Shown: positions 22,382 to 48,700 of the stretch, one piece after another | Layout of the letters: every line of letters starts with the position of its first letter | Numbering within the stretch: the stretch's first letter is position 1 | DNA from: Prevotellaceae bacterium UBA4332 | GTDB taxonomy: Bacteria; Bacteroidota; Bacteroidia; Bacteroidales; Bacteroidaceae | Direction of reading: 5' to 3' | Assembly (NCBI GenBank): GCA_002394365.1 | Contig: DGTQ01000017.1 | Span: forward strand, 188 to 64,187 | Length of the DNA stretch: 64,000 nucleotides | Made by a program: the position numbers and the translations under genes | Notes under the pieces: generated by a model | Databases searched by the model: none | What the model was told of the DNA's origin: nothing | What the model saw: only the letters and a program-made list of their open reading frames with translations

Positions 22382-22413
22382 CAAAGTTACATAAAATAAA
22401 CAAAATCTCCAAA
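22382..22413 (-). promoter_or_regulatory. Bacteroidetes sigma-A promoter for the 1068-aa pectate lyase (about 250-nt leader)
   Basis: GTTTGGAGATT...TAACTTTG with 20-bp spacer. Confidence 0.8.
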
Positions 22414-22561
22414 CATACGTCAAGAAAAAAGCGTGTTATCGCACACAATTAACTAATTTTTAACGTTTGTTCAAGAAAAAACGAACAAAAAACTTTATTC
22501 TTAACTCTTTATACTTTATACTTTTTGGGGGTCACCAGTAAAACCCTGTGTTGATTTTTGA

Positions 22562-22959: not shown

Positions 22960-23108
22960 AGGTCCCTTCGCGTAACTAAGAATAACTGGTGCAAACAGTA
23001 GGGATGTAGGTTTGACATTAGCTGAAAGCTTGCTTTCAGGCGAATGGATGAAGCTACAGACCGTTGCTCTCGAAGAGAGTTGTTCTTAGTGTCTTTGCGA
23101 GAAAAAAA
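22960..23108 (-). repeat. Family E, diverged copy E5 (core 22975-23090)
   Basis: GCGTA-ACTAAGAATAACT...AGTTGTTCTTAGT-GTCTTTGCGAGAAAA; central CTGAAAGC-TT-GCTTTCAG. Confidence 0.65.
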
Positions 23109-23244
23109 TGTAAGACACAGGAATTTGCAGGTGAGCCCTTTTTTTTGTAACTTTGCCTCTTGAGAGTCAAGTTACTTTCACTCGGCATAAAAAATAAATA
23201 AATTTATTTTGTTCTGCGCTCGTTTATTCGTAACTTTGCACTCC

Positions 23245-23584: not shown

Positions 23585-23765
23585 GTATCAGGTCGCTGCG
23601 CTCTCAGGTTTTAAGGAGGAGTTAGAAGAAGTCAGAAGGAGTTAAAGGGAGTTAGAAGACATTACAATTAGCAGGCAGAAAGTCAAAGCCATGTGTCCTC
23701 TATCTCCCTCTATCTACTTCTAACTCCTTAATCCTTATAACACCTTATAACCTCAAACCTTACAA
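23585..23765 (-). repeat. Interspersed repeat family B; homologous copy at about 36425-36585(+)
   Basis: Shared GGATTAAGGAGTTAGAAGTAGATAGAGG...GTAATGTCTTCT...CCTGAGAGCG(C/A)AGCGAC. Confidence 0.75.
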
Positions 23766-23775
23766 CCTCACAACC

Positions 23776-25050
23776 TTACAACCCCATAGCCTGCTCAAGG
23801 TCGGCTATGATGTCGTCAACATTCTCTATGCCAACGGAGAGGCGAATAAGGTCGGGAGCCACGCCTGCCTCACGCAACTGCTCGTCGGAGAGCTGACGGT
23901 GGGTGTGGCTGGCAGGATGAAGCACGCAGGTGCGGGCATCGGCAACATGGGTAACGATGCTGATGAACTCCAGGTTATCCATAAACCTGATAGCATCCTC
24001 GCGAGTGCCCTTCAGTCCGAATGCTATAACACCGCATGAACCATTTGGCAGATACTTCTGCGCCAAGGCGTGATACTTGTTTGATGGCAGACCGCAATAG
24101 TTAACCCAAGCCACCTTAGGATTCTTCTCCAGCCATTCAGCCACTGCCTGGGCATTGGCGCAGTGCTGCTTCATGCGCAGGGCAAGTGTCTCCAGTCCAA
24201 GATTGAGCAGGAAGGAATTCTGCGGGGCTGGTATGCTGCCGAGGTCGCGCATCAACTGTGCCACAAGTTTTGTAGTGTAACCCAGTTTGCCAAATGCCTT
24301 GGTGTATGTCAGTCCGTGGTAAGACTCGTCGGGCGTAGTAAGACCAGGGAACTTCTCGCTGTTCTTGTCCCAGTCGAAATTTCCCGAGTCAACTATGCAA
24401 CCGCCAACCTGAGTAGCATGACCATCCATGTATTTTGTCGTTGAATGTGTTACGATGTCGCACCCCCACTCAAAGGGACGGCAGTTGATAGGCGTAGCGA
24501 AGGTATTATCAACAATCAGCGGCACACCATGCTTATGAGCCATCTTGGCAAAGCGCTCTATGTCGAAGACGTTGCCACCAGGGTTAGATATCGTCTCGCC
24601 AAAGAAACACTTGGTGTTCTCCTTGAAACAAGCCTCTATCTTTTCGTCGTCCCATTCTGGGTCAACGAATGTACACTCTATGCCGAGTTTCTTCATCGTC
24701 ACACCAAAAAGGTTGTACGTGCCGCCATAGATGGTGTTGGAGGTGATGAAATGGTCGCCTGCCTGACAGATGTTGAACACAGCATAGAAGTTTGCTGCCT
24801 GCCCCGAACTGGTGAGCATAGCCCCCACTCCACCCTCAAGCGCGCAGATTTTCTTGGCTACGGCATCGTTAGTGGGGTTAGCGAGACGGGTGTAGAAATA
24901 GCCCTCATCCTTGAGGTCGAACAGACGTGCCATCTGCTCGGATGTGTCATATTTGAAAGTTGTCGACTGATAAATGGGCAACTGCTGTGGTTGGCCTTTG
25001 GTTGGCTTATAGCCACCATGTATGCAAATAGTCTCTAAGTTCTTTTTCAT
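23776..25050 (-). CDS. metY: O-acetylhomoserine aminocarboxypropyltransferase / cysteine synthase family (PLP)
   Basis: PIYQSTTF, YTRLANPT, SSGQAA, IVDNTFATP, HSTTKY (PLP lysine), HPASHTHRQL, IRLSVGIE. Confidence 0.9.
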   Translation of the reverse strand: MKKNLETICIHGGYKPTKGQPQQLPIYQSTTFKYDTSEQMARLFDLKDEGYFYTRLANPTNDAVAKKICALEGGVGAMLTSSGQAANFYAVFNICQAGDHFITSNTIYGGTYNLFGVTMKKLGIECTFVDPEWDDEKIEACFKENTKCFFGETISNPGGNVFDIERFAKMAHKHGVPLIVDNTFATPINCRPFEWGCDIVTHSTTKYMDGHATQVGGCIVDSGNFDWDKNSEKFPGLTTPDESYHGLTYTKAFGKLGYTTKLVAQLMRDLGSIPAPQNSFLLNLGLETLALRMKQHCANAQAVAEWLEKNPKVAWVNYCGLPSNKYHALAQKYLPNGSCGVIAFGLKGTREDAIRFMDNLEFISIVTHVADARTCVLHPASHTHRQLSDEQLREAGVAPDLIRLSVGIENVDDIIADLEQAMGL

Positions 25051-25133
25051 TTATTTATTCTTTTCCCTCTACTTTATACCTTATACTTTATACCTTATAC
25101 CTTATACTTTATACTTTATAAAATAAAACCGCC

Positions 25134-30545: not shown

Positions 30546-31394
30546 TCACAAGTTACCAGTTATAAGTTCTTCAATCTTCCACTTCCGCAGGAAGTTACGT
30601 TCTTCCTCCTTTGCTTTCGCCAGGAAAGTTTTGTATTCCTCGCTGTCTGGATTAAAAGGACGATGGCTCAGTGCTTGCTTGATGGGTTGCCATTCTTTTT
30701 CCATCTGTTTTGCATCTTCGCCGAAGAACATTTCCTTAAATTGTTCATAGATGTAATCCACTGCCTGAGCGGATGGGTGAAGCATGTCTGGTTCATAGAA
30801 TCTATAGTCTCTTAGTTCGTCATTCATTATCTCGTAGGCAGGAAAATATTCCACGCCTTCCAACTCTTTTGTCAACACATCAGCCGCCAAGAGCAGCGTG
30901 GACTTCGACAGTCTGCTGCCATGAAAGCCGTACTTTGCGTAGCGTATAGGACTTACAGTCAGGATTACAGCTACCTCCCTCTCTTTTCCATCAGCAGCGG
31001 TTCTCAGCCTCCCTATTGCCTTTTTGAGGTAAGCCACACAATCATCCACCGTCAACTCCTTTTCTTCAAACAACCGTTGCGGTCTCTTTTGACAGTTATC
31101 TACTATCTCCCCCGTTGCCTTCTCTATGTAAACATGATTAGTTCCGAGCGTGAATACTGCAATAAACCTACCCCCATCCCCTCCCAAAGAGGAGGGGAGA
31201 CGAGATACTGTGTGGTAGATGCTGGCTGGGTTATACATTACCCCATAGGGATTAACAACAGCCCTAAACCTATTGTCTATGAAGCGGTTGCCTATATTGT
31301 CGGCGAAGCAAGACCCTACAAACAGCATCCTGTCCGCAGGCTTTATCTCTATAGCCGATTTCCCTATTTCTACTTTTGTCTGTAGCTTCATCAT
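30546..31394 (-). CDS. GSCFA-domain protein
   Basis: VGSCFADNIG, NPYGVMYNPASI, FTLGT, LTVSPIRY, YFPAYEIMNDELRDYRFY..DMLHP; real start MMKLQT (31394/31391), upstream ORF extension is repeat DNA. Confidence 0.88.
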   Translation of the reverse strand: MMKLQTKVEIGKSAIEIKPADRMLFVGSCFADNIGNRFIDNRFRAVVNPYGVMYNPASIYHTVSRLPSSLGGDGGRFIAVFTLGTNHVYIEKATGEIVDNCQKRPQRLFEEKELTVDDCVAYLKKAIGRLRTAADGKEREVAVILTVSPIRYAKYGFHGSRLSKSTLLLAADVLTKELEGVEYFPAYEIMNDELRDYRFYEPDMLHPSAQAVDYIYEQFKEMFFGEDAKQMEKEWQPIKQALSHRPFNPDSEEYKTFLAKAKEEERNFLRKWKIEELITGNL

Positions 31395-31398
31395 GTGC

Positions 31399-31514
31399 AA
31401 AGTTACTAAAACGAGAGCAAAGCACAAAAGAAATTTATTTATTTTTGTTTTGCCGAGTGCAGATAACTTATTTAAAGTTACTAAAACGAGAGCAAAGCAC
31501 AAAAGAAATTTATT
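31399..31514 (-). repeat. 41-bp direct repeat (31399-31439, 31474-31514), part of a promoter-carrying repeat also present at 23168-23242(+)
   Basis: AAAGTTACTAAAACGAGAGCAAAGCACAAAAGAAATTTATT twice; shared CACTCGGCA...AAAATAAATAAATTT...GTAACTTTGCAC. Confidence 0.8.
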
Positions 31515-31563
31515 GATATTCATCAAAAAACCACACAAAAACCGAATAAAAGCACAACAACGT

Positions 31564-31594
31564 TTTGTGTGTACGCACACAATTTGTAACTTTG
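31564..31594 (+). promoter_or_regulatory. Sigma-A promoter for the PCMD/porin operon with an 18-bp palindrome in the spacer
   Basis: TTTG-N19-TAACTTTG; TTGTGTGTACGCACACAA at 31565-31582. Confidence 0.75.
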
Positions 31595-31599
31595 CAACA

Positions 31600-31693
31600 G
31601 GTTCCAACCTCAATAGGATAGAAAACAAAGAAAAGCATAGAAAAGGAAAAGGATAAAAAGAAAGGTTCATCTCGCGATGAGATGGACTTTTTT
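31600..31693 (+). ncRNA. Candidate short purine-rich transcript or attenuated leader upstream of the PCMD operon
   Basis: Promoter TTTG-N19-TAACTTTG (31564-31594) followed about 65 nt later by a 12-bp hairpin plus T-run ending 30 bp before the PCMD ATG. Confidence 0.4.
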
Positions 31694-31722
31694 AGTAAAA
31701 AGAACAAAACATTCAACAAACT

Positions 31723-32919
31723 ATGAAATTAAAAAACAAAAATTCCATTTGTACTATGTTGATATTCCTTGCGGCATTCACGTGCATGACATCATGCATC
31801 AAGGACGAAGCTGCCAACAAGGAGTGTGACATCATCGGTGCGCGAGTAGTAGGTGACGAATATGCTCAATATTTCAGCGAGCAGAGCAAGATGAGCATAA
31901 CAGACATCACATCTACCGAGTCAACCATCTCTTTTGAACTGCGCCCACTGGCATCCTTACCTAATCAGCTGCCAGTAGCCTTCGACCTCACCCCTGGTGC
32001 CACCATAGAGCCAGCCAACGGCTCCATGCAAGACTTCACCAATGGACCTGTTACCTATACCGTTACGTCGGAGGACGGAGAGTGGCATCGCATTTACAAG
32101 GTGGAATTCAAGGAACCCGTCCTGCCATCCTTCACCTTCAGTTTTGAGAACGTAGATATATCTGAAAAGACAACTGCAGGAAATCAATATAACATCTTTT
32201 ACGAAAAACATCCGACAACAGGCGAGCGGTTAAACATCTGGGCATCTGGCAATGAGGGGGCATCCATGATATTTACATACAAGGGACCAGAAGTCTTCCC
32301 TACCCACTCTACGGAGCAAGGATATAAGAACAAGGGCGTATGCCTGACCACTATCTATGCTGGAGATATGGGCAAGGCGTTTAAACGACCTATTGCCGCA
32401 GGAAGTCTTTTCCTCGGCAAATTCGACATAAACAAAGTTCTTACCGATGCTTTGAAGGCTACACGCTTTGGAATACCTATCAACCGTGTGCCATTAAAGG
32501 TCACAGGCTACTATAAATACAAGCCTGGCGCAGAGTTCACCGACAAGGATATGAAAATCGTATCAGGACGCACTGATGAAGCAAGCATCTATGCCGTGCT
32601 CTACAAGAACAAGGACTCTCAGGGCAATGACTACTACATTTATGGTGCCGAGGTGGCAGACCTTGACAACATGCTGAGCAACCCACAAATAATCAGAGTA
32701 GCAAGAGTAAGCACACTGCCCCCAACTGATGAGTGGTCACGCTTTGAGATGCTCTTTGACGGCAAGGAAGTGGATGCCCAGATAGCAAAGAACAAAGGAT
32801 ACAACTTGGCACTCGTATTCTCATCAAGCAAGAGCGGAGCACAGTTTGAGGGTGCCATAGGCAGTACACTCTATGTGGATGAAGTAGAAGTATTATTTGA
32901 AAAGGAGGAAGAAAAATGA
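31723..32919 (+). CDS. PCMD (putative carbohydrate metabolism domain) lipoprotein
   Basis: Lipobox MTSC; DFTNGPVTYTVTSEDG; WASGNEG, IAAGSLFLGKF, TRFGIP, GYYKYKPG, GAIGSTLYVDEV. Confidence 0.85.
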   Translation: MKLKNKNSICTMLIFLAAFTCMTSCIKDEAANKECDIIGARVVGDEYAQYFSEQSKMSITDITSTESTISFELRPLASLPNQLPVAFDLTPGATIEPANGSMQDFTNGPVTYTVTSEDGEWHRIYKVEFKEPVLPSFTFSFENVDISEKTTAGNQYNIFYEKHPTTGERLNIWASGNEGASMIFTYKGPEVFPTHSTEQGYKNKGVCLTTIYAGDMGKAFKRPIAAGSLFLGKFDINKVLTDALKATRFGIPINRVPLKVTGYYKYKPGAEFTDKDMKIVSGRTDEASIYAVLYKNKDSQGNDYYIYGAEVADLDNMLSNPQIIRVARVSTLPPTDEWSRFEMLFDGKEVDAQIAKNKGYNLALVFSSSKSGAQFEGAIGSTLYVDEVEVLFEKEEEK

Positions 32920-34849: not shown

Positions 34850-35590
34850 ATGTCAGAACTCAGAAGCGAAGGCTTAGTAAAGATATACGGCAAGCGAACA
34901 GTGGTAAACGATGTCTCGTTTAACGTTAGGCAAGGTGAAATTGTTGGCTTGCTCGGTCCTAATGGTGCAGGCAAGACGACGTCATTCTATATGACAACAG
35001 GTTTGGTCGTGCCCAATGCAGGTCATGTATTCATCGACGACCAAGAGATAACCTCCATGGCTGTGTATGAACACGCGCGTCATGGTGTGGGCTATCTGCC
35101 ACAGGAAGCGAGCGTATTCCGCAAGATGTCGGTAGAAGACAACATAATGTCCGTACTCGAGATGACGGGCAAGCCCAAGGCATACAGAGAGGAGAAATTA
35201 GAGAGCCTCATCAACGAGTTCTCCTTGCAGAAGGTACGCAAGAATCTCGGCGACCGTCTCTCTGGTGGAGAGCGCCGACGCACAGAGATAGCACGCTGTC
35301 TGGCTATCGAGCCTAAGTTTATCATGCTTGACGAACCCTTTGCTGGTGTTGATCCTATTGCAGTAGAAGAGATACAGAATGTAGTGTGGCACCTCAAGCA
35401 TCGCAATATCGGCATACTCATCACCGACCACAACGTACACGAGACACTCAATATCACCGACCGCGCCTACCTTTTGTTTGAAGGCAGAATACTCTTCCAC
35501 GGCACACCTGACGAACTTGCAGCCAACCAGATAGTAAAAGAAAAGTACCTCGGCACCAACTTCGTCTTGCAGAAGAAAGTTTTTGACTAA
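34850..35590 (+). CDS. lptB: LPS export ABC transporter ATP-binding protein
   Basis: [57 protein letters not shown]. Confidence 0.95.
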
Positions 35591-35647
35591 TACTTCGATA
35601 CCTCGATATAACAATACAACGAGGTATCAACATAAGAAACCACAAAT

Positions 35648-35686
35648 GAAAAATGCTCCAAGAGTCTCACGACTGTTGGAGCATTT
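35648..35686. terminator. Terminator shared by lptB (+) and the candidate sRNA (-)
   Basis: AAATGCTCCAA / TTGGAGCATTT 11-bp stem; T-run is stronger on the minus strand. Confidence 0.8.
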
Positions 35687-35977
35687 AAAGTATGTTTAAC
35701 TAAAACCTTTTCTAAAAAACAAGGAACATCTCGCGATGTATCCTATGTGTTATCCAAGAGCTAAACAATCTTTTCTAACCTAATAACTAAAACCTAAATC
35801 TATTATATATCTACTAACCTAAACAATATCTACTTTTTGATTCTTTTTTGATATCCCTTTTTACAATCTTTCTACCTAACTTCGCTAAGCCTAAAGCTGT
35901 ATATTATTTCTACTAACCTAAACAATCTTTGCTTTTATACTTTTTGATAGCCTCAAGGAGGTTTATTTCCTTTTGAC
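35648..35977 (-). ncRNA. Candidate ~330-nt small RNA with repeated AUUGUUUAGGUUAGUAGA motifs
   Basis: Consensus promoter TTTG-N20-TACCTTTG (36013-35982) on the minus strand, ORF-free C-poor body, intrinsic terminator 35686-35648. Confidence 0.7.
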
Positions 35978-35981
35978 GATG

Positions 35982-36013
35982 CAAAGGTACTGCGAATAAA
36001 CTGTGTGCGCAAA
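35982..36013 (-). promoter_or_regulatory. Sigma-A promoter driving the candidate sRNA
   Basis: TTTG-N20-TACCTTTG. Confidence 0.8.
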
Positions 36014-36099
36014 CAATTTTGCAAAAAACTTCTCTTTTTTGCTATATATTTGACATATATCAAGTGTTGTGTACGCACACAGCGCAATTTTGGGCGTTT

Positions 36100-36317
36100 T
36101 ACCACGGATTATTCGGATTTTCACGGATAATCCACTTTATTATATTTTTCTCGCCAAGGAGAAGGACAACCTCTTCGAGGATTTAAGTCCTTGTCAGTAG
36201 TGCCTGCATGTGAGCAAGCTCCTCTGTAGTCACTTCCCCCAAGTCCTTTTGCTGTTCCAGCCTTTGTCCTCCTCTACGCAAAGAGCCAAGGCGCACCTAC
36301 GGTGCTACGCAAGGAGG
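36100..36317 (+). repeat. Family E, copy E2 (core 36159-36274)
   Basis: CACGGATTA-type triplet, TTCTCGCCAAG, GAGAAGGACAA/TTGTCCTCCTC stem, central GAGC-AA-GCTC, TACGCAAAGAGCCAAG. Confidence 0.8.
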
Positions 36318-36601
36318 CTGGCGCATGAAAAAAAGAAAGAGTTATGAGGTTCTTGCGCTCCAGTAGGTGCTCAGTCGCAAAGCGGAGCTTGCTCTAGCAA
36401 GCCAACAAGTTGGAGCGATGAGGTCATGAGGTTATGAGGTGTTATATGGATTAAGGAGTTAGAAGTAGATAGAGGTAGATAGAGGACAAATGTTCCAGTT
36501 CTCTGACTGTTAATCGTAATGTCTTCTCACTCCCTCTCACTCCCCCTAAAGCCTGAGAGCGAAGCGACTTTAAGACCTGACACCAAACTTCACCTTAAAA
36601 T

Positions 36602-36812
36602 CCGCATGGTCTCTTTGCGTAAGCTCCGAAGGAGCGTCTTGGCTCTTTGCGTAGAGATGAAAGACTGCTGTTAAGCAGTGCAGGGATTAGCTTTTGTGGG
36701 CACTGAGAACTGGTTCTCAAGTGAACATGAAAGGTAATAACTGCTTACCTCGTATAGAGGGCTTCATCTCGGCTTGGCGAGAAAAAAGAAAAATCCGAGC
36801 TATCGGTGGTAA
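36602..36812 (-). repeat. Family E, copy E3 (core 36654-36770)
   Basis: About 90% identical to E4 over ~145 bp; GAGATGAA/TTCATCTC stem; central TGAGAAC-TG-GTTCTCA. Confidence 0.85.
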
Positions 36813-37218
36813 AAGACAGTAAAAGGGATTTGTAGCGATTTTATTCGGCGAAATGTTAAATTTTAACAAGCTCAAAAGAGCGAAAACATGCAAAAAACAA
36901 GCACAACAGAACATTCTTTCAAAACTCTTTCTTGCTAATATTCAGCACGTTAGCTACAAAGCAGCAAAAGAGGTTGCAGAAGCAGTACTTCCGCGTTCAG
37001 AACTAATGGTTTTAGGCTCTGGAAGCAGTGGTTCCTCTTGCAGAAGTGGCACTTCTGCAAGGGGAACCGAAAAGTGTTAAAATTGTCGGGGGTGGGGAGA
37101 TTTCTATTCTCCCCAGAAGGGAGAGTTAGAGGGGGCTTAGCACCCACGCGCGGTTACTTAGCAAGGGCACGCGGTTGCTAAGCACCCACGTGCGGTTACT
37201 TAGCACCCGCACAAACAG

Positions 37219-37247
37219 AAAAAGGAACGCCGTTTGGCGTTCCTTTT
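37219..37247 (-). terminator. Intrinsic terminator after the 2808-aa protein
   Basis: AAAAGGAACGCC-GTTT-GGCGTTCCTTTT. Confidence 0.85.
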
Positions 37248-37269: not shown

Positions 37270-40200
37270 TCATGGCTCAGGTGTAGGTGCAGGTGCAGGC
37301 GTATCAACCTTATTGCCAACATTCACCTTGGCATCACCCGTCACATCAGCGGCGTTGCCACCACCATATACATTGCCGCGTATGTCAACACCCTCAACGG
37401 GAACGTCTTTGAGAGGCTCAGCCTCACCACTCGCCTTTGTTTCGAAGTTGATGGTGCCCAACGTGCCGATGTTGACAGTGGTGTTACCTATAACCTTGGC
37501 AGCATTACCACCACCGAAGACGTTGCCTATGGCACCTATCTTGGTCTTTACGTGGGCAGGCAGGTTTACGGTGTGAGTAGCAACGACATCACCAGTCTCC
37601 TCGTCCACTTCCTCTATCGTCATGTCCTTGCCTTTGAAGCCTGTATCGTTATAGTCACCGGTAGTAGGATAGTTGGTTGGAGTGCCCACCACTTCGTTGA
37701 TGTTCACCACTGGGTTACCCACCATCACGGCAGTCTCACCAAAGCCGCCGCCGTATATGTTGCCTATGCTGGTAAACGACTTCACGTTCACCTGCGGGTT
37801 AGCGTAGAGAGGAGCATCACCGCTTTGCTTTATCGTGCCGTCATCGTTATAGCCGTAAACGGAATAGGCAGCCTCGTTGCCGCCGCCGTACAGCTCACCT
37901 ATTATGATAGGTCGGCAACCCGTCTCCTCTATGTTCACGGTTATTGAGCCCTTGATGGTTCCGCTTTCGTTGTTGCCGCCGAACACGCGCTCATACGTAC
38001 CGTTGGTTATGTTCAGCGTCACGTCACCGTTCATGTCGGCAGCCTCGGCACCGCCATACACAGCCTTCAGTCCTGGGATACAGCCTATGCGTAGCTCAGC
38101 CACGGCATCCATCGGAGCACTCTTGCCACCGCCGTAAGCCTCGTCAACGCAGAAGCCACAACCGTCGTCCGCCTCATCCAGCGTAGTCACGGCAGTCTGC
38201 CTTACGTTACCCTTGGTGTTAGAACCACCGAACACCTTGTGTATTGTTCCGCCATAGATGTTCACCTCAGCCATGCCCGTACCATACGCGTAAGCACTCG
38301 CTCTCCTTTCCTCCTTTGTGTCCATCTCCTCACTGGTCTCCACAGCAGAGTAGTCGTAGTAGCCCACGTTAGCACCAGGGTTCGCCTTGGTAACACCGTT
38401 AATGGTTATGTCATCCTTACCGTTACCGCCTCCGAACACCTCGTCTATCTCGTATGTGCCGTTTACAGTAACGCTCGTAGCAGGTGTAGATGCAGCGTTG
38501 CCGCCTCCATACACCTGTTTGATACTGGTGCGCTCACAACCGTCGATAATCACCTCCGTCTTGTTGTTCACAAGGTCGGCAGGCTCATATTTCGCAAGGT
38601 TACCACCGCCATACACAGCCTTCAGGTCATAGCGTCCCTTTACCTTTGCTGTCTTGTCGCCCTCCTCAGGGTTGGCAATGGTTGTAGCCGCCTCGTTCTG
38701 CGTTGCGTAGATGTGCACCGTCACGTCGCCGAGCGGCGTACCGTTCAGGTTGTTGCAACCGAAGATGCTGCCCTTCACCACGCAACCCTTTGCGTCAGCT
38801 GCAACGTCCTTGTTCAGCTCCACAGTGGCATTGCCCACCGTAGCCGCCACGCCGTCCGTGATGTTGCCTTCGTCATCCGTCTCCAACGTGCCTCTGCCGC
38901 CGCCATACACATTATTATTTATAGTGCCGCCAAGCAGTGACACCTTGGTGTCGCCCGTCACGTTCGACTGCTCACCGCCACCATACACATTGCCTGCCAC
39001 GGTAGTGGTGCCGTTAATGGTGAGCGTAGCATTGCCCGTCACCGTGCCGAGGTGGGTCAAGTCCTCTGTTGTATAGAGAATATGATTTGTGTTATCCACC
39101 CATGAGTCGCCTGTCTTTTTTTGCCAAGTATAGGTCGTTGTAGAGCCTTTTACACCCTCACGATAAGTTCCAAGATCTTGGTAGTAGTAAGGTTCCGTTG
39201 TAAAACCTGTAGCATCCACCTCAACAGAAGGCAGAGATGCCGAGAATCCTGCACCAAAGGCACTGCCCTGAACCTCGCAATTAGTCAGTGTGGAGGTCAC
39301 GGGACCATCTACTTTGCCCAGACTGCCGCCACCATAGAAATTGCCAGTGATTTTGCATCCTGTCAGTGTTGAAGTGACATCGCGGCAGATAGCCAATGAA
39401 AATTTCACATATTCCACATAGATACGTCCACAGTTGTCGGCATTACCAGACATAGGCAGGAATTGGTAGCTGAACTGAGTGGAAACGCCATCATATGTGC
39501 TGCTATAGGACTGAGTGTAGAATCGTCCCAACCACGCATTCCATGAAGCATCATTGCCAGCCTGACTATCATTATGAGGGAAGTTTATCATATTGTTATG
39601 GTTCCTCGGTGCTTGGCGACTGTAGGAGTTGCCACCATAGCCTGCACCAAAGAAGGTTCCAAAGATGCAATTCGTTGCATTGGTGGTAACAGTCTTGCCA
39701 GTACTCATATCACCAAACTTAGGACCACCGCAGAAGAGGTCAATCTTTCCACCAGTTATAGTGGTGTTGAGGTTGCCGGTGACGGGTTTGGCTGCATTGA
39801 TGCCACCTGCGTAGAATTCCCGAATGTCGGCATTTTGCACTTGCCAAGTGATATTGCCTGTATTGTCTGCTCCTTTAGCTTTACCAATACCCTCCATAGC
39901 AGCTCCAGCAACAATGCCAAAGCGGCCACCGTTAATATAGCACTCCGCATTGTCGGCATAACTGGCGACATTGGCAGTATAGAGGCCAGTGAGGTAGAAT
40001 TTGTCATAGTCACCGCCAGTAACCGATACAGGCGGATGTTTTGAATCATGAGATTGATCTTGGTGAGTACCCCGATGGAACTCCTTAAACCATACATTAC
40101 CACCCACATGGAAATAAGTGGTTTTATTGGATCTTCCTCCACTTTGTCCACTCACCCACTGCTCCATAACACCACCTTGCAAAATCAAAGGTGCTTCGAC

Positions 40201-43200
40201 ACGACTGCTGTTGTCGTACTCTAACTGCGTGACGTGGAAGAGTGAGGTATTGGTAGTTTCGAACCAATATAGAGGTTGGAAAATACCTTGATTGTAGGAA
40301 CCCGTACCACCCGTAGATTTCTGTGCCATACCAAGACCCACGATATTCAGGAAGTCCCACTTCGCGGGATGCAACCTGTTACGACCATCATTACGCAACA
40401 TTAGAGAATAGTCTGGCTCATTGTCATGGTCAAGATCGATGGTGGTAACTGTATATTTATAATTACTGCCAATGGCCACGTTATTTCCCGTATATTGATG
40501 GACATTCCCCACAAGTACGACAGCGTAGTCATGAACCGAATTGTCTGTGGGTTTATAAAGTCCATTAGCATTGGTAACTGCTTCACTGATTGAAGTAAAG
40601 ACTCTCTGTTGTTCGCCAGCGATATTATAATTGGTATTGTTTGTGTACTTTTGTCCGCCGCCTACATTAGAAACATCGTAGGCTTCAGTCATCTTGGTAT
40701 TGTATACCACATCAGGATAGGCATCAGCAACATATGCCGCCTTAGCCCAGTAAGGCTCAATGGTTATTGCCGTCACACCTTCCGGCACGTCCCAGTATGC
40801 ACCCTGATTGAACACCCTCTTGCTGGTGCTGTAGAGGTCTTTGTTGGTACACTGGCGGTCAGCAAAGTTATATGCAGGTGCATCGTCACCAGTACTATAA
40901 GTACCAGGCGTACCACCAGTGATGCTGACAATCTTCCATCCCGTTACCACACGATTGCCTGTATAGTTCTTTGTGCCCACATCGTTATAGTAAGGCAGCT
41001 GCACCTTATAGTAGTTGAAGTTGAAGTGGTCGGGGTCCTTGTCGGTGATGTTGAGCGTCAGCGAAGGATAGACAATCTCCGCCCCAGTAGGATGTTCGAA
41101 CTGCGCTCCGTCGCCCATCCGTATGGTAACGGCAAGCGTACCCATATTGCCGCCCTTGTTGCGCTCAGTATATGCAGGCGCATTCTCTGCATCGATGTTA
41201 ACTACTGAGGGATAGTAGCCCGGCTTGGCAAGAACAGGGTAGGGAGTAGAAGAGCCAATCTGTGAGGGCAGCAGTACCCACTTCGCCATCTCTTCCTTGT
41301 CGGAATAGTCACCCGTTGCCCACCAGGCTGCAAGTTCACGGTGGCTGTTCTGCAGATGACGGAAGAACTCGAAACGCTGCAGGAAACGTGTCTCGGCACC
41401 GAGGGCACAGTTATATTTCTTGTTTATGGCTGTATTCTGAATGTAGGCAGACTCGAGACGGAAGTAGTTGAAATTGCTGACACCCGTATTGTCGCCCACA
41501 TTAGTGATAATATAACCGTGATATATAGGAGCTATCGAATCGCCGCTCACCTCACCGTAGAACATGCAGTTCATCACCATGGTCTTGAGGTTTCGGGCGG
41601 TTGTGACAACATTATTGTAACCCACTATACCACCAACATGAGTACCTCCGGAGACATTGGCGTAGCTGAAGCAGTTGATGACGCGCGCCGAGCCGTCGAG
41701 CAGTCCCACGAGTCCGCCCACATAGTTGGAGCCGCTCACCGTGCTGCTGCATGAGGTGATGTGCGTATATCCGCTGTTGTCAATCCTCACCGTGCTGTTT
41801 GTGGCGAGTATGCCGCAGTTGTATATGCGTGTGTCACCCCTTGCCTCGTTGCAGATGGCACCAACGTTGGTGCCTCCGCTGATGCTTACGTTGTCGAGCA
41901 TCAGGTTTTTAATACTTGCGCCGTCAGCGTATGCCACGAACGGAGTACTTAAGCCGCTGAACGTATGGTACTGTCCGTCAATCACGCCAGTGAACGGTGC
42001 GGAGCTCGTTCCGAGCGAGGTAAAGCCAGATTCAAACGTAAAGTCCTCTGCAAGGAGGTAGTGACCGTTCATGTCGGTCATCTCTGACGAACTGTGTATT
42101 TCCAATGGCGCAGGGACAATCTCAAGCCACAGTGTCTGTACATTTGTGCCTTGGTCGCCAGCTGTTGCAGCTTCTGCTTGCTCGGCAAGTGACGTAAACG
42201 GCGTAATACCGCTGAACGCCACCACCTTGGTATGGTCAAAGCGAGGCATGAGGCGCATGTTGCCGTTGGCATCGCCCACTACCATGAAGGTGGCATTGGT
42301 GATGTTGAGCGTAGTCTGGTCGTAGCCTGTAGCAGTCTGCTTGGTGTTGAGGTTCTGCAGCGTCACTGCGCTTGAAGTGCCAGCCCATGTTCCAGCGGTA
42401 AGTGCCGGTGACGAAGTGTTGGCTGTGAAGTAACGCTTGGTATTATACTTACTCTGTATCTGCACATTATAAGGGTCGAAGCCGTTCTTGCCGGCATCAT
42501 AATAGTCTTGCTCGGTTTCGTTCTTACTCTTCGCTTCTGCCTGAGCACCCGACTCGCCTGCATAGCGGTAGCCCATCTCACGGTCGATGTCGAAGTATGG
42601 TCTCAGGTACCATTGCATATCTTCATCAGCCTCCTCAATACTGGCTGGTGCCGCGGCAGCCTCAACGATAGAGCCTGAGGTCTTGGCATATTTACCGCCC
42701 TGCATCAGCAAGAAGGATGAAGGCTGTGTGGCATCAGCCGTTGCTGCTCCTGTATAGGTGCTGGTGTAGCGTGGCTTCACGGTGTAGGTAACGTAGAAGT
42801 CGGTCTTCACGCTCTTATCCTGAACGGGTGATGTTATGTGGAGATATGGTATATCAGCGAGCGATGTTGAATTATGAGTCGTCCTTCTTCCATTATCCAC
42901 CCATTTGTTTTTTTCGTTAAGTTCATATATAACAATATCAGGATCGCTGACCCTATACTTGTGGTAGCCCGTATATTTCTCAGCTTTTGGGTACCACTGG
43001 TATTCCGCTACCATTGGACTGTTAAATTTGCTCAGTTCTTCTGTGTTTACAGCTGTCAAAGCCGCATCTGTGTACATTGGCACACGCATGACCTCCCATC
43101 CGTGTTGGTCAAGCAGGATGACCTGCGGAGCCAGTGACACTTCCTCAAAGGTGAACTGACCTGAACCCATCGAGATGGTCTGATACCAGTGCGTCTCTTC

Positions 43201-45696
43201 GTGTAATGTTTTGGAGCCTCCTCCCCATGGGGCAGAGTAAGCCCAGGAGGTGAACCTATGCCATCCCTTTTCAGTCAGCGTCGTGTTATCCGCGGCAGGT
43301 ACGTCATCTCCCCCCACGAGGCTCTTCACCGTTGGGTTGTTCTTCCAATACTGCTCGAAACTATTGACTATCCTACGCTCGCCCTCTACTTCATAGAATG
43401 TCTTGAGCGTCATATTCTGCAGCGATGTGCCGAGAATCATGTACTCCGTTGGCTGACCATTGACCATGGACGACGGCATCATTGCAGGGTAAGCCTCTTT
43501 ATAAGCCACATTTTCGTATGCTATGTTAGTTACCACCGATGCATAGCCGCTGGGCTTATAGGTTTGCAGGTAAGAACTGCCGGTACCATAGTTAACGTCT
43601 GTCGTTGTTGGTTTACCATTAACTTTTTCTTTGTCCTTGACCGTATGGTTCTGGTAAGATTTGAAGACCACATGGTAGGGGTCAACATTGGCACCTGTCA
43701 GGTCAACACCATCATGGCGGCTCTTGATGTACCACAGCCAACGTGAACGGGTGGAGGCACCGCTGGACAACTGATTGTCCCACTGCGCCTGTCCATAGAC
43801 ATAGAGGTTGAAGTCACCGTTGTTGTATGGATATATAGCCTTGGTGGGTGTGTCAAGGATGCCATCAGAGCCGTTCTCCTGATTGAAACTCTCGCCGTCG
43901 CTGAACTTCATCAGGTAAGTCTTAGTGCCCTCAAGGTCTATGGCATCGCTTACGTCATAGTTTACGTAGATGTCGCCGCCATTACCCACGTCAAAAGGAC
44001 TGGTGATGGTATTGCTAAGGGTATATACGCCGCCATCAATACTTGCCGTGCTGTAGTAATGGTATTCTGAAACCAACGGGCTTGTCCACTCGCTTGGCAC
44101 CGCAAGCTCTGCCGATGAACTCGGAATATCTGCTATAAGCTTTCCTGCCTTGTCGATAAGGTGGTAGGTCGTGGAGATACTATACGGATAGGCACGTATC
44201 TCAGCTTTGGAGAAGTCATTGGAGCCTACAGCCATCAGCTGCACCTGCTCGTAAGTAGTGCCACTGCCAGCCATCAGTATGAACTTGGTGGTTGCAGTGG
44301 CTGCAACCGACAGCGTGGGTGGCGTGGAGAACACAAGGTAGCGGTGGTCAGTGTCGAGGTTCTTTATCTGCACGTCGTAGGGGTCATTGCCGCCGATGTT
44401 CCACAGGTGATTTGCCTGTGAGAGTGTGGAAACGCCAGAGTCGTAAGCAAGAGTGCCGCTGTTGTCATAAGCATAATTGTCGCCGACCTTGATATTGAAG
44501 GCACGCGCACCACGCAGATGCAGGAATTTCTCCGACAGTAGGTCAGTGGTATAGGTAACGTAGATGTTGGCATCAGCCTCGGGCGTTGCGGTAATCTTCA
44601 CCTCGTCGGTGAGCTGGTCAGGAGAGGTGTATACCTCGCTGAATGTGTAGAACGATGCCGCCTCGCCATCAAGGTAGCTGCTGCGGATGTCAGCAGGAAT
44701 ATCATCTACAGTGGTGAGCGACTTGCCGACAGACTGTGTCACCTCTTTCTTTATTGCCACATTGCCGGAACGGTTTATAATATAATAGGTGTAGGTCTGC
44801 AAAGGCAGACTCACGACGATGGACACTTTGCTATTATCGCTTGTTTTCACGGCGATTGCCTTGACAGCCGTCATACCCGCCGTAGGAGTAATGGCACCAG
44901 TGTATGTGGTGCTCTCCGCTGTAGGCGTATCACCGTTGGTCGTATAGTGTATGGTAGTGCCCTCGTCTGCCGTTATGGTAATGTCGCCAGCGGCACTGAC
45001 GCTGAACGCTGGCGGGGCAACGGTCTCTTCGAGCCGCCATACGGAGTTTTTATCAGTATCACTGTTATAGACTCCGATAAGACCGCTATAATAAGGTGAG
45101 TTTCCTCCACCGTAGTATTGAGCCTGATTACCGCCTGCGGGGTTAAGGAAACGGTTGCCGCTGCTTATGCTTAGGCTTATGGGGCGCATAGACACGCCCG
45201 AGCCGCTTTCCTGAATGTCAAACTTGGCATCGTCGCCAGGCGTAGCTACGGTTTCCAGGTGCACAGCCTTTCTGTGTGAAGTATTGCCTGTATATACAGC
45301 CTTATATAACAGGTATTTGCCCGTAAGCCAGTGCTTGATATAGTAATATCCGTCACCAGCATCCACTATCTGCCACAACGAGTTGTTGTCACGATTGGTC
45401 TGGTAGGTTGTGACAAACGGCTTCTCGGGGTCGCCCTTGGCAAGAGAATAGTTTGCCGAATAGTAGGCATCCTCATAATCTGGTCTTTGGGGGTTTGCAG
45501 CAGGCACCCAATAGAAGTTATTGGCAACATTGCTGGGACTGTACCCATTGTTACCAGCTATATAGTACGTTCCCGAATAGTCAACAGCCCACGCCTCACT
45601 GCCTACTGCAAGGAGCAGTATTAAATTGAAGATTCTTGCTTTGGCAAGCCAACAAGTTGGAGCGGAAAAATGAAAATTGAAAATCTTTTTCATCAT
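37270..45696 (-). CDS. Giant secreted repeat protein (2808 aa): beta-trefoil-like, CHB_HEX-C-like, GLUG-like motifs and C-terminal (V/I/F)YGGG beta-solenoid
   Basis: Signal peptide ending AWA; WQIVDAGDGYYYIK; TTIHYTTNGDTPT; NYVGGLVG / HVGGIVGYN; about 20 xxV(Y/F)GGG repeats in the last ~950 aa; ends TPAPAPTPEP with no recognisable T9SS CTD. Confidence 0.8.
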   Translation of the reverse strand: MMKKIFNFHFSAPTCWLAKARIFNLILLLAVGSEAWAVDYSGTYYIAGNNGYSPSNVANNFYWVPAANPQRPDYEDAYYSANYSLAKGDPEKPFVTTYQTNRDNNSLWQIVDAGDGYYYIKHWLTGKYLLYKAVYTGNTSHRKAVHLETVATPGDDAKFDIQESGSGVSMRPISLSISSGNRFLNPAGGNQAQYYGGGNSPYYSGLIGVYNSDTDKNSVWRLEETVAPPAFSVSAAGDITITADEGTTIHYTTNGDTPTAESTTYTGAITPTAGMTAVKAIAVKTSDNSKVSIVVSLPLQTYTYYIINRSGNVAIKKEVTQSVGKSLTTVDDIPADIRSSYLDGEAASFYTFSEVYTSPDQLTDEVKITATPEADANIYVTYTTDLLSEKFLHLRGARAFNIKVGDNYAYDNSGTLAYDSGVSTLSQANHLWNIGGNDPYDVQIKNLDTDHRYLVFSTPPTLSVAATATTKFILMAGSGTTYEQVQLMAVGSNDFSKAEIRAYPYSISTTYHLIDKAGKLIADIPSSSAELAVPSEWTSPLVSEYHYYSTASIDGGVYTLSNTITSPFDVGNGGDIYVNYDVSDAIDLEGTKTYLMKFSDGESFNQENGSDGILDTPTKAIYPYNNGDFNLYVYGQAQWDNQLSSGASTRSRWLWYIKSRHDGVDLTGANVDPYHVVFKSYQNHTVKDKEKVNGKPTTTDVNYGTGSSYLQTYKPSGYASVVTNIAYENVAYKEAYPAMMPSSMVNGQPTEYMILGTSLQNMTLKTFYEVEGERRIVNSFEQYWKNNPTVKSLVGGDDVPAADNTTLTEKGWHRFTSWAYSAPWGGGSKTLHEETHWYQTISMGSGQFTFEEVSLAPQVILLDQHGWEVMRVPMYTDAALTAVNTEELSKFNSPMVAEYQWYPKAEKYTGYHKYRVSDPDIVIYELNEKNKWVDNGRRTTHNSTSLADIPYLHITSPVQDKSVKTDFYVTYTVKPRYTSTYTGAATADATQPSSFLLMQGGKYAKTSGSIVEAAAAPASIEEADEDMQWYLRPYFDIDREMGYRYAGESGAQAEAKSKNETEQDYYDAGKNGFDPYNVQIQSKYNTKRYFTANTSSPALTAGTWAGTSSAVTLQNLNTKQTATGYDQTTLNITNATFMVVGDANGNMRLMPRFDHTKVVAFSGITPFTSLAEQAEAATAGDQGTNVQTLWLEIVPAPLEIHSSSEMTDMNGHYLLAEDFTFESGFTSLGTSSAPFTGVIDGQYHTFSGLSTPFVAYADGASIKNLMLDNVSISGGTNVGAICNEARGDTRIYNCGILATNSTVRIDNSGYTHITSCSSTVSGSNYVGGLVGLLDGSARVINCFSYANVSGGTHVGGIVGYNNVVTTARNLKTMVMNCMFYGEVSGDSIAPIYHGYIITNVGDNTGVSNFNYFRLESAYIQNTAINKKYNCALGAETRFLQRFEFFRHLQNSHRELAAWWATGDYSDKEEMAKWVLLPSQIGSSTPYPVLAKPGYYPSVVNIDAENAPAYTERNKGGNMGTLAVTIRMGDGAQFEHPTGAEIVYPSLTLNITDKDPDHFNFNYYKVQLPYYNDVGTKNYTGNRVVTGWKIVSITGGTPGTYSTGDDAPAYNFADRQCTNKDLYSTSKRVFNQGAYWDVPEGVTAITIEPYWAKAAYVADAYPDVVYNTKMTEAYDVSNVGGGQKYTNNTNYNIAGEQQRVFTSISEAVTNANGLYKPTDNSVHDYAVVLVGNVHQYTGNNVAIGSNYKYTVTTIDLDHDNEPDYSLMLRNDGRNRLHPAKWDFLNIVGLGMAQKSTGGTGSYNQGIFQPLYWFETTNTSLFHVTQLEYDNSSRVEAPLILQGGVMEQWVSGQSGGRSNKTTYFHVGGNVWFKEFHRGTHQDQSHDSKHPPVSVTGGDYDKFYLTGLYTANVASYADNAECYINGGRFGIVAGAAMEGIGKAKGADNTGNITWQVQNADIREFYAGGINAAKPVTGNLNTTITGGKIDLFCGGPKFGDMSTGKTVTTNATNCIFGTFFGAGYGGNSYSRQAPRNHNNMINFPHNDSQAGNDASWNAWLGRFYTQSYSSTYDGVSTQFSYQFLPMSGNADNCGRIYVEYVKFSLAICRDVTSTLTGCKITGNFYGGGSLGKVDGPVTSTLTNCEVQGSAFGAGFSASLPSVEVDATGFTTEPYYYQDLGTYREGVKGSTTTYTWQKKTGDSWVDNTNHILYTTEDLTHLGTVTGNATLTINGTTTVAGNVYGGGEQSNVTGDTKVSLLGGTINNNVYGGGRGTLETDDEGNITDGVAATVGNATVELNKDVAADAKGCVVKGSIFGCNNLNGTPLGDVTVHIYATQNEAATTIANPEEGDKTAKVKGRYDLKAVYGGGNLAKYEPADLVNNKTEVIIDGCERTSIKQVYGGGNAASTPATSVTVNGTYEIDEVFGGGNGKDDITINGVTKANPGANVGYYDYSAVETSEEMDTKEERRASAYAYGTGMAEVNIYGGTIHKVFGGSNTKGNVRQTAVTTLDEADDGCGFCVDEAYGGGKSAPMDAVAELRIGCIPGLKAVYGGAEAADMNGDVTLNITNGTYERVFGGNNESGTIKGSITVNIEETGCRPIIIGELYGGGNEAAYSVYGYNDDGTIKQSGDAPLYANPQVNVKSFTSIGNIYGGGFGETAVMVGNPVVNINEVVGTPTNYPTTGDYNDTGFKGKDMTIEEVDEETGDVVATHTVNLPAHVKTKIGAIGNVFGGGNAAKVIGNTTVNIGTLGTINFETKASGEAEPLKDVPVEGVDIRGNVYGGGNAADVTGDAKVNVGNKVDTPAPAPTPEP

Positions 45697-45789: not shown

Positions 45790-48700
45790 TTACTTTACGA
45801 ACAGCTTGCTGCTGTAGTCGCCTGCCACGGTGCGCACTGCATATACCAAGCCGGAAGGCACGTGGATGGTGACGCTGCTGTTTCGCTTCAGGTCGAATGC
45901 CTTGACGAGAGCGCCGCCCACTCCATATACGAGTACCACACGTGGCTCATCAATGGTTGACTTAGCCGTAATGGTGCCTACGCCTGAGGTGAAGGTAATC
46001 TTGCCGTCGGCATCATCCTCCGCATCACCCTTAGGCGTGATGTTCGGCTTATCGTCCTGCTCAGGTGTCACATCCGGCTTTTCCTCAGCCTCGGAGAATA
46101 TGATGTTCATAGAGTTCTGACCACCAGTCCTTACGAAGTAAGCACGGAACGGCAGGAGTTGTGTTGCATCGCCTTCGGCAGGCACCTTCACATACTTGCT
46201 GCCGTCAGACTTCATTACGTAGATGTCAGAACCAGCAGCGATATCTTCATTCAGATAGTTAGGTTTGAAGGTGTAGGTGTAGGTGTAGTTGCCCTGCGTG
46301 CTGCTCTGCGTCACGCCTGTCATGTCGGCATCACTCGCATTGATGGTAGCACCCATGACAGAAGCGAAGGTGACAACCTGACGCTCGAAGCCTGAAGGCA
46401 GCTTAGGAGCCTTCCACTCGCCGCTGAGGTCAAACTCATAGAACTCCTTGCCAGGGAAGCCTATAATATAAGGTGTAGCTCCAAGCTGCTGTGGATAGCC
46501 TTCGTATGTGACATCTATATCCTTGTAATACTTGTTCTGTCCCTCACCATCCAGTTTATCAAGGTGCTGATGCAGATAATCCCAGAGGAAGCTGTTGATG
46601 TAATGCTTATTATCAAAGCCGTCATCACTGGCATCTCCCTTGGCGAGGCTGCTGAAGGTAGCCTCCATGGTGGATGACTTGTCAGTACTCTTAGCTATGG
46701 CCGTGTATTTGCGCAACCAGTATTCATGACCTACCCTGCCCTTTTCATTGCCGGTATAGAAGTGGGTCAGCTCACCCTTCTGCTGGGTAGTTACCATATC
46801 CACGGTGAATGGCAGGCTTATTGACTCCCATCCAGTGTTCAGTCCCGCGTAGGTATCAGGTATGCGCTGATGCCACATACGTGAAGAACCATCGAAGGTA
46901 TATCCTATTGGTGCATAGAAGTCATTGCAGTCAACGAGGAAGTGGTCGTAGGTTGCCTTATAAACACCTTCTGCATTCCTCTGTACCCAGTGAGCCATTA
47001 CCTGTGACTCGTCCTTTGGTGCCACGGTGCCGTATTTGCCATCGGTCTCAGCGTAGCGCGTCTCCTCCAACGCAAGAGATACGGCGTGTCCAGTCTTGCC
47101 TGCTACAGTTGCCTCATCACCAGTTTCTGGTGCCTCGGTGTATGCAAGCAGGTTCTTCGTCAGACCGAAGTTCTTGAAGTTGGTAAGTGCCGTCTCGGCA
47201 TCAAGCAGCGGTGCGAAGAAATTAGCGTTAGGACTGTCGTTGTTGTTAACGTATGCCTTGGCTTCGCCAGTAGAGCCGTCGAACACATCGTTATAGCCTG
47301 TGAAGTCTATAGCCGTCATGCCGTTGTGAACCAAGGTATTCTCGTCGCCGTTCTTATGCTTAGCAAAGACAGCGTACGGGTTGAAGAACGCCTTGCTCAT
47401 CACGCTGCTACGGAAGTAAGCCGGAGCACGGAGCACACGGTTACCTGTCAAGCCTGTCTCGATGTAGTCGCCGTCCTTAACTAATGGTGACGGTACATCC
47501 TGATGCTCTGCACCAACCACGTAGCCGTAGTTCAGCGCCTGTCCGAAGAAGATGTAATCATCTGGGTAGAGAGGTACATATTTGCCTTCTGTTCTATTCA
47601 GACGTACATCGTCTTCCTCTGGTATCTCACCATCGGCATAGATGAAGTCAACGTTTCCATATCTGCTGTTGACGTAGGCAGTGTCGGTGATTGCCGTCTG
47701 TCCTCCCCTGTTAAGGTTGTAACGCTTTTGCAGGTAGAAGCGGTTGAGGTTGTAAGCCACCTCACCGTTGTAGAACTGCGTAGCAGTAGCAGCAACACGT
47801 GAACCACCTGGGGTGCCTGCTGCCCCTGCAGAGAGGTAGTAAGAGTTTCTCAACTGACTTTGGTTGTCAGGGCTACTGATAATCGGGTTAGTTATCTCCA
47901 CACCAGTAGTATCCTTAACCCAGCAGTTCTCTGCCATGCCATCGCCGCTGTTGGCTATGCCACCAGTGGTGAACGCACCCATTGCACCGAGGTTATAGAC
48001 ATTGCCGCAGAGCTTGTCGAACAGTGAGCCTGTAAGTCCGCTCACGTAGTGGCCGTCACCATGCACGTTGCCTCCGAAGCACGTCTCCTCTCCGCTGCCT
48101 ATTGGCATCCACGGCGTAGAGCCTACAGCGAGGTTGGTGCGCAGGATGAAGTCGAGGTCGTCGGCTCCTCTCACGGTTGAGCTGTTGAGCAGCTTGTGGC
48201 CCTTGAACTTGTGTCCCGCAGTGGTTATTGAGTCACCGTCAACGGTTATGCCTGCCGTACTGCTGCTGATGAGGCTCAGGTCATAGAGGTCCTTCAGCAG
48301 GTCGAGACCGTTCTCGCCGTCAGCCGTGTAGTCATTGATATAAACCTTTGGTATGCGCTTGCCAGAAAGGTGAGCGTCCTTATGGTCTATGTAGTAGTGG
48401 TGCGTCTTAGCATCCATCACCTTCTTCAGGTCGTGGTAGTTTGCCACGCTGAACTGCACAGGGTTAGAATATGTCTTGCCTAAGTAGCTCTTAGCGTAGT
48501 AAGCCACATAGTAACCGTCCTGATAGTAGTACATAGGCGTGGAGTTGTTTACATACTCCTGACCGTTTGTGTGATGTTCAGCATTATACTTGCTGTCGAA
48601 TATCTCCCATCCGCCACCGATGAGCTCGTAAGCACCCGGCGTTACTCTTGGCTGGTTCATGCCCACCGTAGTGCCAGGCAGCACGGTGGTTGGTGCCATG

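Follow-up and report, generated by a model that had tools for sequence, protein, structure and literature searches.

Prevotellaceae are the dominant bacteria of the rumen and of many human gut communities, and to our knowledge SrcF is the only small RNA (sRNA) from this group that has been studied functionally. SrcF (ScnR276) of Segatella copri is an intergenic RNA of 272 nt with high expression in gut samples, and glycan-utilisation loci are altered when it is deleted (bioRxiv 10.1101/2024.04.05.588293). In the same work, the sRNAs of S. copri were found to show little conservation outside the S. copri complex, and the species was reported to be without Hfq, ProQ, CsrA and RbpB-type proteins (bioRxiv 10.1101/2024.04.05.588293). 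In Bacteroides, a second point of comparison is provided by FopS, an RNA of 65–70 nt with a single 5' seed covering the start codon, through which it base-pairs with glycan-utilisation mRNAs at their 5' ends (PMC11697453). FopS is reported to be conserved within Bacteroidaceae and to be bound by the RRM protein RbpB, and the multicopy FopS sRNAs can repress glycan-utilisation operons (PMC11697453).

The locus analysed here is a stand-alone gene of a large multicopy Prevotellaceae sRNA family, and the only family gene within the window, that is, the whole 64-kb stretch of DNA that was analysed. It occupies positions 35646–35977 on the minus strand and is matched by the family HMM at E values of 1e-15 and 3e-19. 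The predicted transcript of ~330 nt starts near 35977, ends after the U-run at 35650–35646 and contains no open reading frame of 30 aa or more. Its boundaries lie where the earlier sequence-only reading of this DNA had placed them, with a Bacteroidota-type promoter of the form TTTG-N20-TACCTTTG at 35982–36013 (−33 TTTG at 36013–36010, a 20-nt spacer and the −7 box at 35989–35982) and an intrinsic terminator at 35646–35686 (hairpin 35686–35651 with a 16-bp stem and a C-GUGA-G loop, followed by a UUUUU tail). Upstream of the start, a family-specific control region (36001–36082, minus strand) carries two palindromes of 14–16 bp of the TGTGTGCGCACACA type, at 36067–36082 and at 36001–36016, the latter overlapping the −33 box, with a CTTGATATATGTCAA element (36064–36050) between them.

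Within the transcript, a 5' stem-loop, AACCUCCUUGAGGCU (35949–35963), is retained as a hairpin of varying length in the orthologues and is followed by two copies of a common module. Module 1 (35864–35930; nhmmer E = 5e-7) is a diverged copy with the head AGAUUGUUUAGGUUAGUAGA at 35928–35909, and module 2 (35761–35838; nhmmer E = 5e-23) is a stretch of 78 nt without any C that holds three of the six UUAGG motifs of the sRNA. The 3' domain (35693–35767) consists of a long-range helix, P1, in which 35767–35759 is paired with 35701–35693 and for which RNAalifold finds compensatory changes, enclosing the GNRA-capped hairpin P2 (35743–35723) and the U-run that follows it at 35722–35714. The G/U-rich motif AGATTGTTTAGGTTAGTAGA recurs exactly at 35909–35928 on the minus strand, with one mismatch at 35810–35829 on the same strand and with two mismatches at 22270–22289 on the plus strand, against 0.01 matches expected by chance; none of 100 shuffles gave three. 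Of the three motif copies originally proposed within the sRNA, the first two are repeats of this motif, while the third (35761–35772) is one arm of a conserved helix (GUUUAAC with GUUAAAC) and is structural, not a free seed.

The proposal of a separate non-coding transcript is borne out by metatranscriptomes. Contigs from four rumen or gut data sets cover 35675–35949 apart from the neighbouring genes, the lptB contig stops at 35643 separately from the sRNA contigs, and depth is zero at 35976–36143 in three of the four runs, although contigs of this kind give neither the strand nor the exact ends of the RNA. Since the untranscribed spacer at 31381–31650 also has zero depth in the runs that yielded the sRNA contigs, the signal at the sRNA locus represents RNA and not contaminating DNA. 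The contigs continue beyond the U-run at 35722–35714 as far as 35675. Furthermore, the rumen metatranscriptome X26 holds, besides the sRNA, a 409-nt contig identical to 21918–22326, which shows that the complementary site of the lyase leader discussed below is present on RNA that continues into the lyase coding region. Four other runs (X16, X38, X3 and X24) showed an even, DNA-like coverage in which no transcript boundaries could be read; in these, the depth over the module was 6–15 times that of its flanks, and the module must therefore be multicopy in the sampled communities. With a promoter and an intrinsic terminator of its own, no coding capacity and detectable transcription, the locus has the general properties of a trans-encoded sRNA gene.

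The extent of the family was assessed by an exact scan for the 18-mer ATTGTTTAGGTTAGTAGA in one genome per species, which returned 106 loci, nearly all of them in rumen and gut members of Prevotella or Prevotellaceae. Many assemblies contain three to six family loci, with a maximum of five to six. Family copies have a common layout, in which CTTGATAnnTATCAAG is flanked by two TGTGTGCGCACACA-type palindromes, the second of which overlaps the −33 box ahead of TACCTTTG, and the transcripts start with the conserved CATCGTCAAAAGGAAA. The module reads ATTGTTTAGGTTAGTAGA(TAT)ATAATAGATTTAGGTTTTAGTTATTAGGTTAG AAAAGATTGTTTAAC, and an internal hairpin and the GNRA-capped terminator are likewise common to the copies. 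When up to two mismatches were allowed, the palindrome was found 177 times in family loci (791 kb) and twice in lyase loci (331 kb); the latter is the chance level, and the palindrome marks family loci specifically.

At least seven other species carry the lptB-adjacent copy in synteny; there, the flanking genes are 78–83% identical and the 3' half of the sRNA is 90–92% identical, with an identical module 2 head of ~55 nt. Among eight contigs that encode an identical LptB protein, the RNA varies only in the length of an A-run and at one A/G position. Across 33 aligned 3' halves the module columns are invariant, so that ~55 nt remain unchanged between paralogues as well as between species. RNAalifold identified 14 compensatory pairs in all, with many in the terminator and likewise in P1; within P1, pair 83/152 is AU in 29 sequences and GC in three. 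The module of the family RNAs is predicted to be single-stranded, and with an opening cost of 3.9–5.5 kcal/mol for the 20-nt core in the sRNA this invariant, C-free and UUAGG-rich segment offers a conserved and accessible seed. The module is probably the active part of the family RNAs, as a surface for either base pairing or protein binding. The ~55-nt invariance exceeds what seed pairing usually needs, and a protein partner would therefore fit.

No match at the gathering score was obtained with Rfam 15 for the whole window together with ten family loci, and at E ≤ 10 the sRNA locus gave only weak, terminator-like matches (ctRNA_p42d, BTnc231 and others). A text search of the literature for the motif returned bisulfite primers only. 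The family is thus apparently undescribed, being absent from Rfam 15 and from the searchable literature. The genes adjoining family copies encode an LtaS-like sulfatase, a chromate transporter, a GDSL lipase, OmpA, an amidotransferase and a peroxidase, and no glycan-utilisation locus was found among the neighbours examined. As these are housekeeping surroundings, no feature connects the family with pectin in particular.

Compared with FopS/GibS of Bacteroides thetaiotaomicron, the family has several features in common: both are multicopy paralogous Bacteroidota sRNAs with canonical −33/−7 promoters, and both combine a C-poor, G/U/A-rich single-stranded region with an intrinsic terminator (PMC11697453). 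The differences are nevertheless substantial. At ~330 nt, the Prevotellaceae RNA is five times longer than the 65–70 nt of FopS and contains internal modules, one or two in number and up to 78 nt long. In FopS the single-stranded 5' seed leads straight into the terminator, whereas in the Prevotellaceae RNA a 5' stem, two modules and the P1/P2 domain precede it. In addition, FopS pairs at start codons, while the strong site of the Prevotellaceae RNA lies 148–167 nt upstream of the AUG. The suggested kinship with FopS gained nothing from direct comparison: FopS is not among the nine weak Rfam matches (E ≤ 10) over 35500–36200, the presence of a FopS model in release 15 being unconfirmed, and the FopS 5' consensus GUGUUUUUCAUAGUAUUAGAUUUAAGGUUAACAAA (Supplementary Data 2, PMC11697453) scored 21 against 16.6 ± 2.9 for shuffles (p ~0.10). 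In its general mode of action the Prevotellaceae RNA may resemble FopS, being multicopy and possibly acting by base pairing, but it is not a member of that family. SrcF, the nearest studied RNA by taxonomy, is similar in size when the two are compared by description alone, both being Prevotellaceae sRNAs of ~270–330 nt. SrcF is described with a highly structured 5' end (10.1101/2024.04.05.588293). Unlike the S. copri sRNAs, with their reportedly narrow conservation, the present family is multicopy and spans many Prevotellaceae.

The plus-strand occurrence of the motif lies in the 5' leader of a minus-strand gene (18916–22122) for a PL1 pectate lyase of 1068 aa with a CBM77 module (Pfam Pectate_lyase_4, 3.7e-21; CBM77, 3.8e-25). 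A lyase promoter is predicted at 22382–22413 (minus strand; TTTG at 22413–22410, a 20-nt spacer and TAACTTTG at 22389–22382), which would give a leader of ~255 nt. The leader segment complementary to the sRNA extends over 22260–22318 and has its core at 22289–22270, 148–167 nt upstream of the start codon. The pairing previously described for this core was recovered in all its details: it comprises 20 bp, both differences being G:U pairs, the second motif copy pairs over ~27 nt with a 2-nt bulge, and a leader hairpin, AUCUAC-UUUCGGG-GUAGAU (22273–22255), overlaps the site. Beyond the core, sRNA positions 35841–35779 form an imperfect duplex of ~59 nt with leader positions 22318–22260 at −50.6 kcal/mol, and module 1 pairs with the same leader region at −40.2 kcal/mol. 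Opening the 20-nt core of the leader costs 2.9 kcal/mol.

That such a match might be a low-complexity coincidence can be set aside. When the sRNA body was scored against each 30-nt window on both strands, the top rank among 25,410 fell to the leader site (−32.0 kcal/mol; mean −13.7, sd 3.1), and against 100 shuffled modules the leader of the window reached z = −6.7. The complementarity of the lyase leader is far beyond chance. Modelled in this way, pairing of a family RNA with the lyase mRNA is physically plausible, and it would be lineage-specific.

The origin of this complementarity is found in the leader itself, which carries an inverted and decayed fragment of a family gene, so that the match is explained by descent. 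A search of the window with the module profile identified three places: both sRNA modules and 22267–22319 on the plus strand (nhmmer E = 6.4e-4). With a profile of the whole two-module gene, the leader match widens to 22251–22330 (E = 8.6e-5) and takes in a CCCGAAAG stretch, which in intact genes precedes the module. The resulting plus-strand fragment of ~80 nt, inside the lyase 5' leader, corresponds to the end of the middle hairpin and the module, with a local alignment score of 95 against 45.6 ± 7.5 for shuffles. Because the fragment is inverted, the minus-strand lyase mRNA is antisense to the module. A larger relic was also considered, in which a complete inverted gene would have left a promoter remnant in the start of the lyase coding region; the promoter part was rejected, as it rests on codons that differ in the lyase relatives.

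The closest relatives of the lyase, drawn from metagenomes, differ in this segment. In L109, whose lyase shares 93% amino-acid identity, the fragment is kept only in part; L108 (90%) has a short leader without the segment of ~133 nt; and in L110 (77%) the aligned upstream copy is also without it, the locus being rearranged and the copy resembling a truncated lyase start. Against the 100 shuffled modules, the L109 leader gave z = −3.4, and complementarity in the L108 and L110 leaders was not significant. Further antisense fragments were sought in 106 family and 81 lyase loci (1.1 Mb), where only the weak match of L109 was found. Complementarity is thus not conserved among the orthologous targets of L108, L109 and L110, and the notion of an evolved, conserved target site gives way to that of an inverted gene fragment that is truncated or absent in relatives. 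On the evidence of these sequences, the link between the sRNA and the lyase is recent and polymorphic among close relatives, and not the conserved function of the family. As the 90% and 77% relatives lack complementarity above shuffled controls and the 93% relative has it only in truncated form, it may be neutral debris.

The reading that we prefer, at a probability of roughly 0.6, is therefore that of a family sRNA gene whose lineage-specific pairing with the lyase leader arose from an inverted gene fragment. Any family RNA present in the cell could then pair with the leader 138–196 nt upstream of the start codon. Such pairing would probably reduce lyase expression, through double-strand-specific cleavage or remodelling of the leader; alternatively, the lyase leader might titrate the sRNA. 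Ribosome binding is unlikely to be blocked directly, given that the core site is 148–167 nt away from the start codon. A partial precedent exists in the Correia elements of Neisseria, repeats that, when located in mRNA leaders, create a double-stranded RNA substrate with lineage-specific post-transcriptional effects. The Correia duplex forms within one RNA from its own inverted repeats, whereas the lyase-leader duplex would form in trans, between the leader-embedded fragment and sRNAs from intact copies elsewhere.

Other explanations place the function differently. The one advanced from the sequence at the outset, a regulator devoted to pectin use that is multi-seed, FopS-like and associated with RbpB, and that represses the lyase through several conserved sites, one of them near the start codon, and also acts on the gene at 6384–8015, draws on the strong main complementarity, on the presence of three PL1 lyase genes and an AraC-type regulator nearby, on the conservation of the start-region sequence UUUACUAACUAACUAC in lyase relatives, and on the precedent of multicopy FopS sRNAs acting on glycan operons (PMC11697453). 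It is made decidedly improbable by the leader site being truncated or absent in close lyase relatives, by the housekeeping neighbours of the family copies and by the lack of a FopS match in Rfam and the non-significant similarity to the FopS consensus. Its additional sites also fail: 22145–22159 (−20.4, rank 671 of 25,410) and 8025–8037 (−18.3, rank ~2000 of 25,410) are at chance level, and ORF 6384–8015, taken earlier for a second lyase, has no Pfam match and no lyase domain. Moreover, S. copri has been reported to be without RbpB-type proteins (10.1101/2024.04.05.588293). A different view is that the family acts mainly as a protein-binding or sponge RNA whose UUAGG repeats serve a single-strand RNA-binding protein, the lyase match being incidental. 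CsrB/RsmZ sponge RNAs are several hundred nt long, contain many copies of a short purine-containing motif and titrate CsrA. The six UUAGG motifs of the sRNA, where 0.5 are expected, and the ~55 nt that are invariant across paralogues and species agree with such a role, as does the result that in 745 start regions (1.19 Mb of Prevotellaceae DNA) complementarity to the module showed no excess over shuffled modules, in a crude scan with guessed ORF starts and duplex folding that permits long loops. However, the GGA motifs of CsrB/RsmZ are presented in hairpin loops, while UUAGG lies in an open C-free stretch; S. copri is reported to possess none of Hfq, ProQ, CsrA and RbpB-type proteins (10.1101/2024.04.05.588293). 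We regard a mainly protein-binding or sponge function as fairly unlikely, and protein-binding and base-pairing roles are in any case compatible.

Two further explanations dispense with a trans-acting RNA from the locus at 35.8 kb. A mobile or selfish, MITE-like repeat without RNA function, one copy of which reached the lyase leader in opposite orientation, would account for the multicopy nature of the sequence and for the inverted fragment, and nearby spacers are indeed rich in other repeats. Yet the copies occupy stable syntenic positions across species, have a conserved promoter and terminator as well as compensatory helix changes, and give rise to detectable RNA; the copy is nearly identical among strains with differing flanks, and an informal look at the copy boundaries revealed no terminal inverted repeats. 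Taken together, these features render a MITE-like element highly improbable. Hardly credible, finally, is an active cis-antisense sRNA gene of the DonS type on the plus strand at 22100–22340 that would itself be the regulator. The whole plus strand of this region aligns loosely to an sRNA gene, including a TACCTTT at 22110–22116, but HMM significance is confined to 22251–22330, and TACCTTT sits in codons that vary among the lyase relatives. The −7 box would read TACCTTTT, with neither a −33 TTTG nor upstream palindromes, and no terminator follows downstream; the segment 22251–22330 is accordingly a relic devoid of an intact −33/−7 promoter, palindromes and terminator.

Under the preferred reading of a family sRNA gene with a recently acquired lyase-leader match, the wider interest of the locus lies in the family as much as in the lyase. 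Given its shared promoter design, its ~55 invariant nt and transcripts that are detectable in rumen samples, the multicopy family is a strong candidate for the role of global regulator in Prevotellaceae. The lyase leader represents a natural test case, given that close relatives differ in whether they possess the complementary segment, and it illustrates that an sRNA-target pair can arise by rearrangement and not by point mutation. A broader generalisation, which we consider quite unlikely, is that the family members are a Prevotellaceae-wide class of riboregulators, defined by the invariant C-free UUAGG module and under one palindromic operator, and that new targets are recruited whenever inverted fragments of the sRNA genes land in 5' leaders. 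If this were true, such targets would be the bacterial equivalent of microRNA/target pairs derived from repeats, and the lyase leader would represent an early stage.

Some minor observations may be added. A search for identical lyase proteins in other strains returned the source contig only. A partial match with 87% identity (P0002) is located on a 3-kb contig. In addition, the leaders of the window, L108, L109 and L110 all have in common an A/C-rich start region and a 5'-proximal element, AATTGTGCGCGAGCACAG, which may represent either a hairpin with a GNRA cap or a degenerate palindrome.

Within the Prevotellaceae family to which the minus-strand small RNA of the window (sRNA; 35977..35646) belongs, the only parts common to all copies are module 2 and the 3' domain. 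In six copies that are syntenic, adjoining lptB in other assemblies (L005, L014, L045, L052, L064 and L073), a middle hairpin (GGGCAAGGGA...CCCTACCCGAAAGAC) separates modules 1 and 2; the window copy has lost this hairpin, at 35850-35838, and module 1 has been lost from another family locus, L012. Nearly all family hairpins, both internal and terminator, are capped by C-GYGA-G loops, that is, GNRA tetraloops (alignment A1).

The predicted promoter (22382..22413, minus strand) of the PL1 pectate lyase gene whose leader is predicted to pair with the sRNA is flanked by two degenerate versions of the palindrome found in the control region of the sRNA gene (22347-22362 and 22433-22448), pointing to a partial origin of the lyase control region from that of an sRNA gene. 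The downstream palindrome, AATTGTGCGCGAGCACAG, occupies about +15 to +30 of the lyase leader, and all four lyase relatives that were compared retain it; it may fold into a GCGA-looped 5' hairpin or act as an operator. A third palindrome of the TGTGTACGCACACA type lies between a -33 TTTG and a -7 TAACTTTG in a unit at 31560-31705 on the plus strand. Downstream of this promoter, a purine-rich stretch of about 100 nt is followed by a hairpin (CATCTC-GCGAT-GAGATG) with a U-run, and a PCMD-domain gene (31723-32919) begins just beyond. The unit may encode a small RNA or act as an attenuator, with the promoter design of the sRNA family. Metatranscriptome contigs start here at 31655-31700, and none covers 31381-31650.

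Upstream of the sRNA promoter, nested inverted repeats (for example, 36097-36121/36790-36814 and 36272-36306/36622-36656) mark a repeat-rich element at 36097-36814, and a related copy stands upstream of the lyase promoter, at about 22540-23140. Metatranscriptome contig depth reaches 115-865 at 36312-36479, with far lower values at neighbouring genes, reflecting either a very abundant RNA or high copy number across genomes.

Units of 8-9 nt, such as AGGTTATG, AGGTTGTG and AGGTATAA, form long C-free arrays in spacers and directly after stop codons (2367-2513(+), 23696-23788(-), 25040-25130(-) and 36426-36486(+)). The arrays have an AGGUU core in common with the sRNA module, and after some of them comes a long hairpin in which a G/A-rich arm pairs with a C/T-rich arm.

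Three PL1 pectate lyase genes stand in tandem at 8929-22122(-), encoding proteins of 1846, 1379 and 1068 aa with CBM77 and Listeria-Bacteroides repeat domains, and an AraC-type regulator gene lies downstream (5129-6289(-)). The 543-aa ORF at 6384-8015(-), termed a lyase in the sequence-only reading, matched no Pfam family at E<=0.01. Two giant ORFs, of 2808 aa (37270-45696(-)) and 3740 aa (45790-57012(-)), share the strand of the sRNA and lie upstream of it; the portions scanned gave no Pfam match, and related proteins carry precomputed matches to Fn3_assoc and CHB_HEX_C_1. Directly past the giant-ORF stop, 37131-37212 holds three overlapping repeats spaced by about 21 nt, together with inverted repeats (GCTTAGCACCCACGCGCGGTTACTTAGCA...), and a perfect 12-bp terminator-like hairpin (37220-37247) lies ahead of them.
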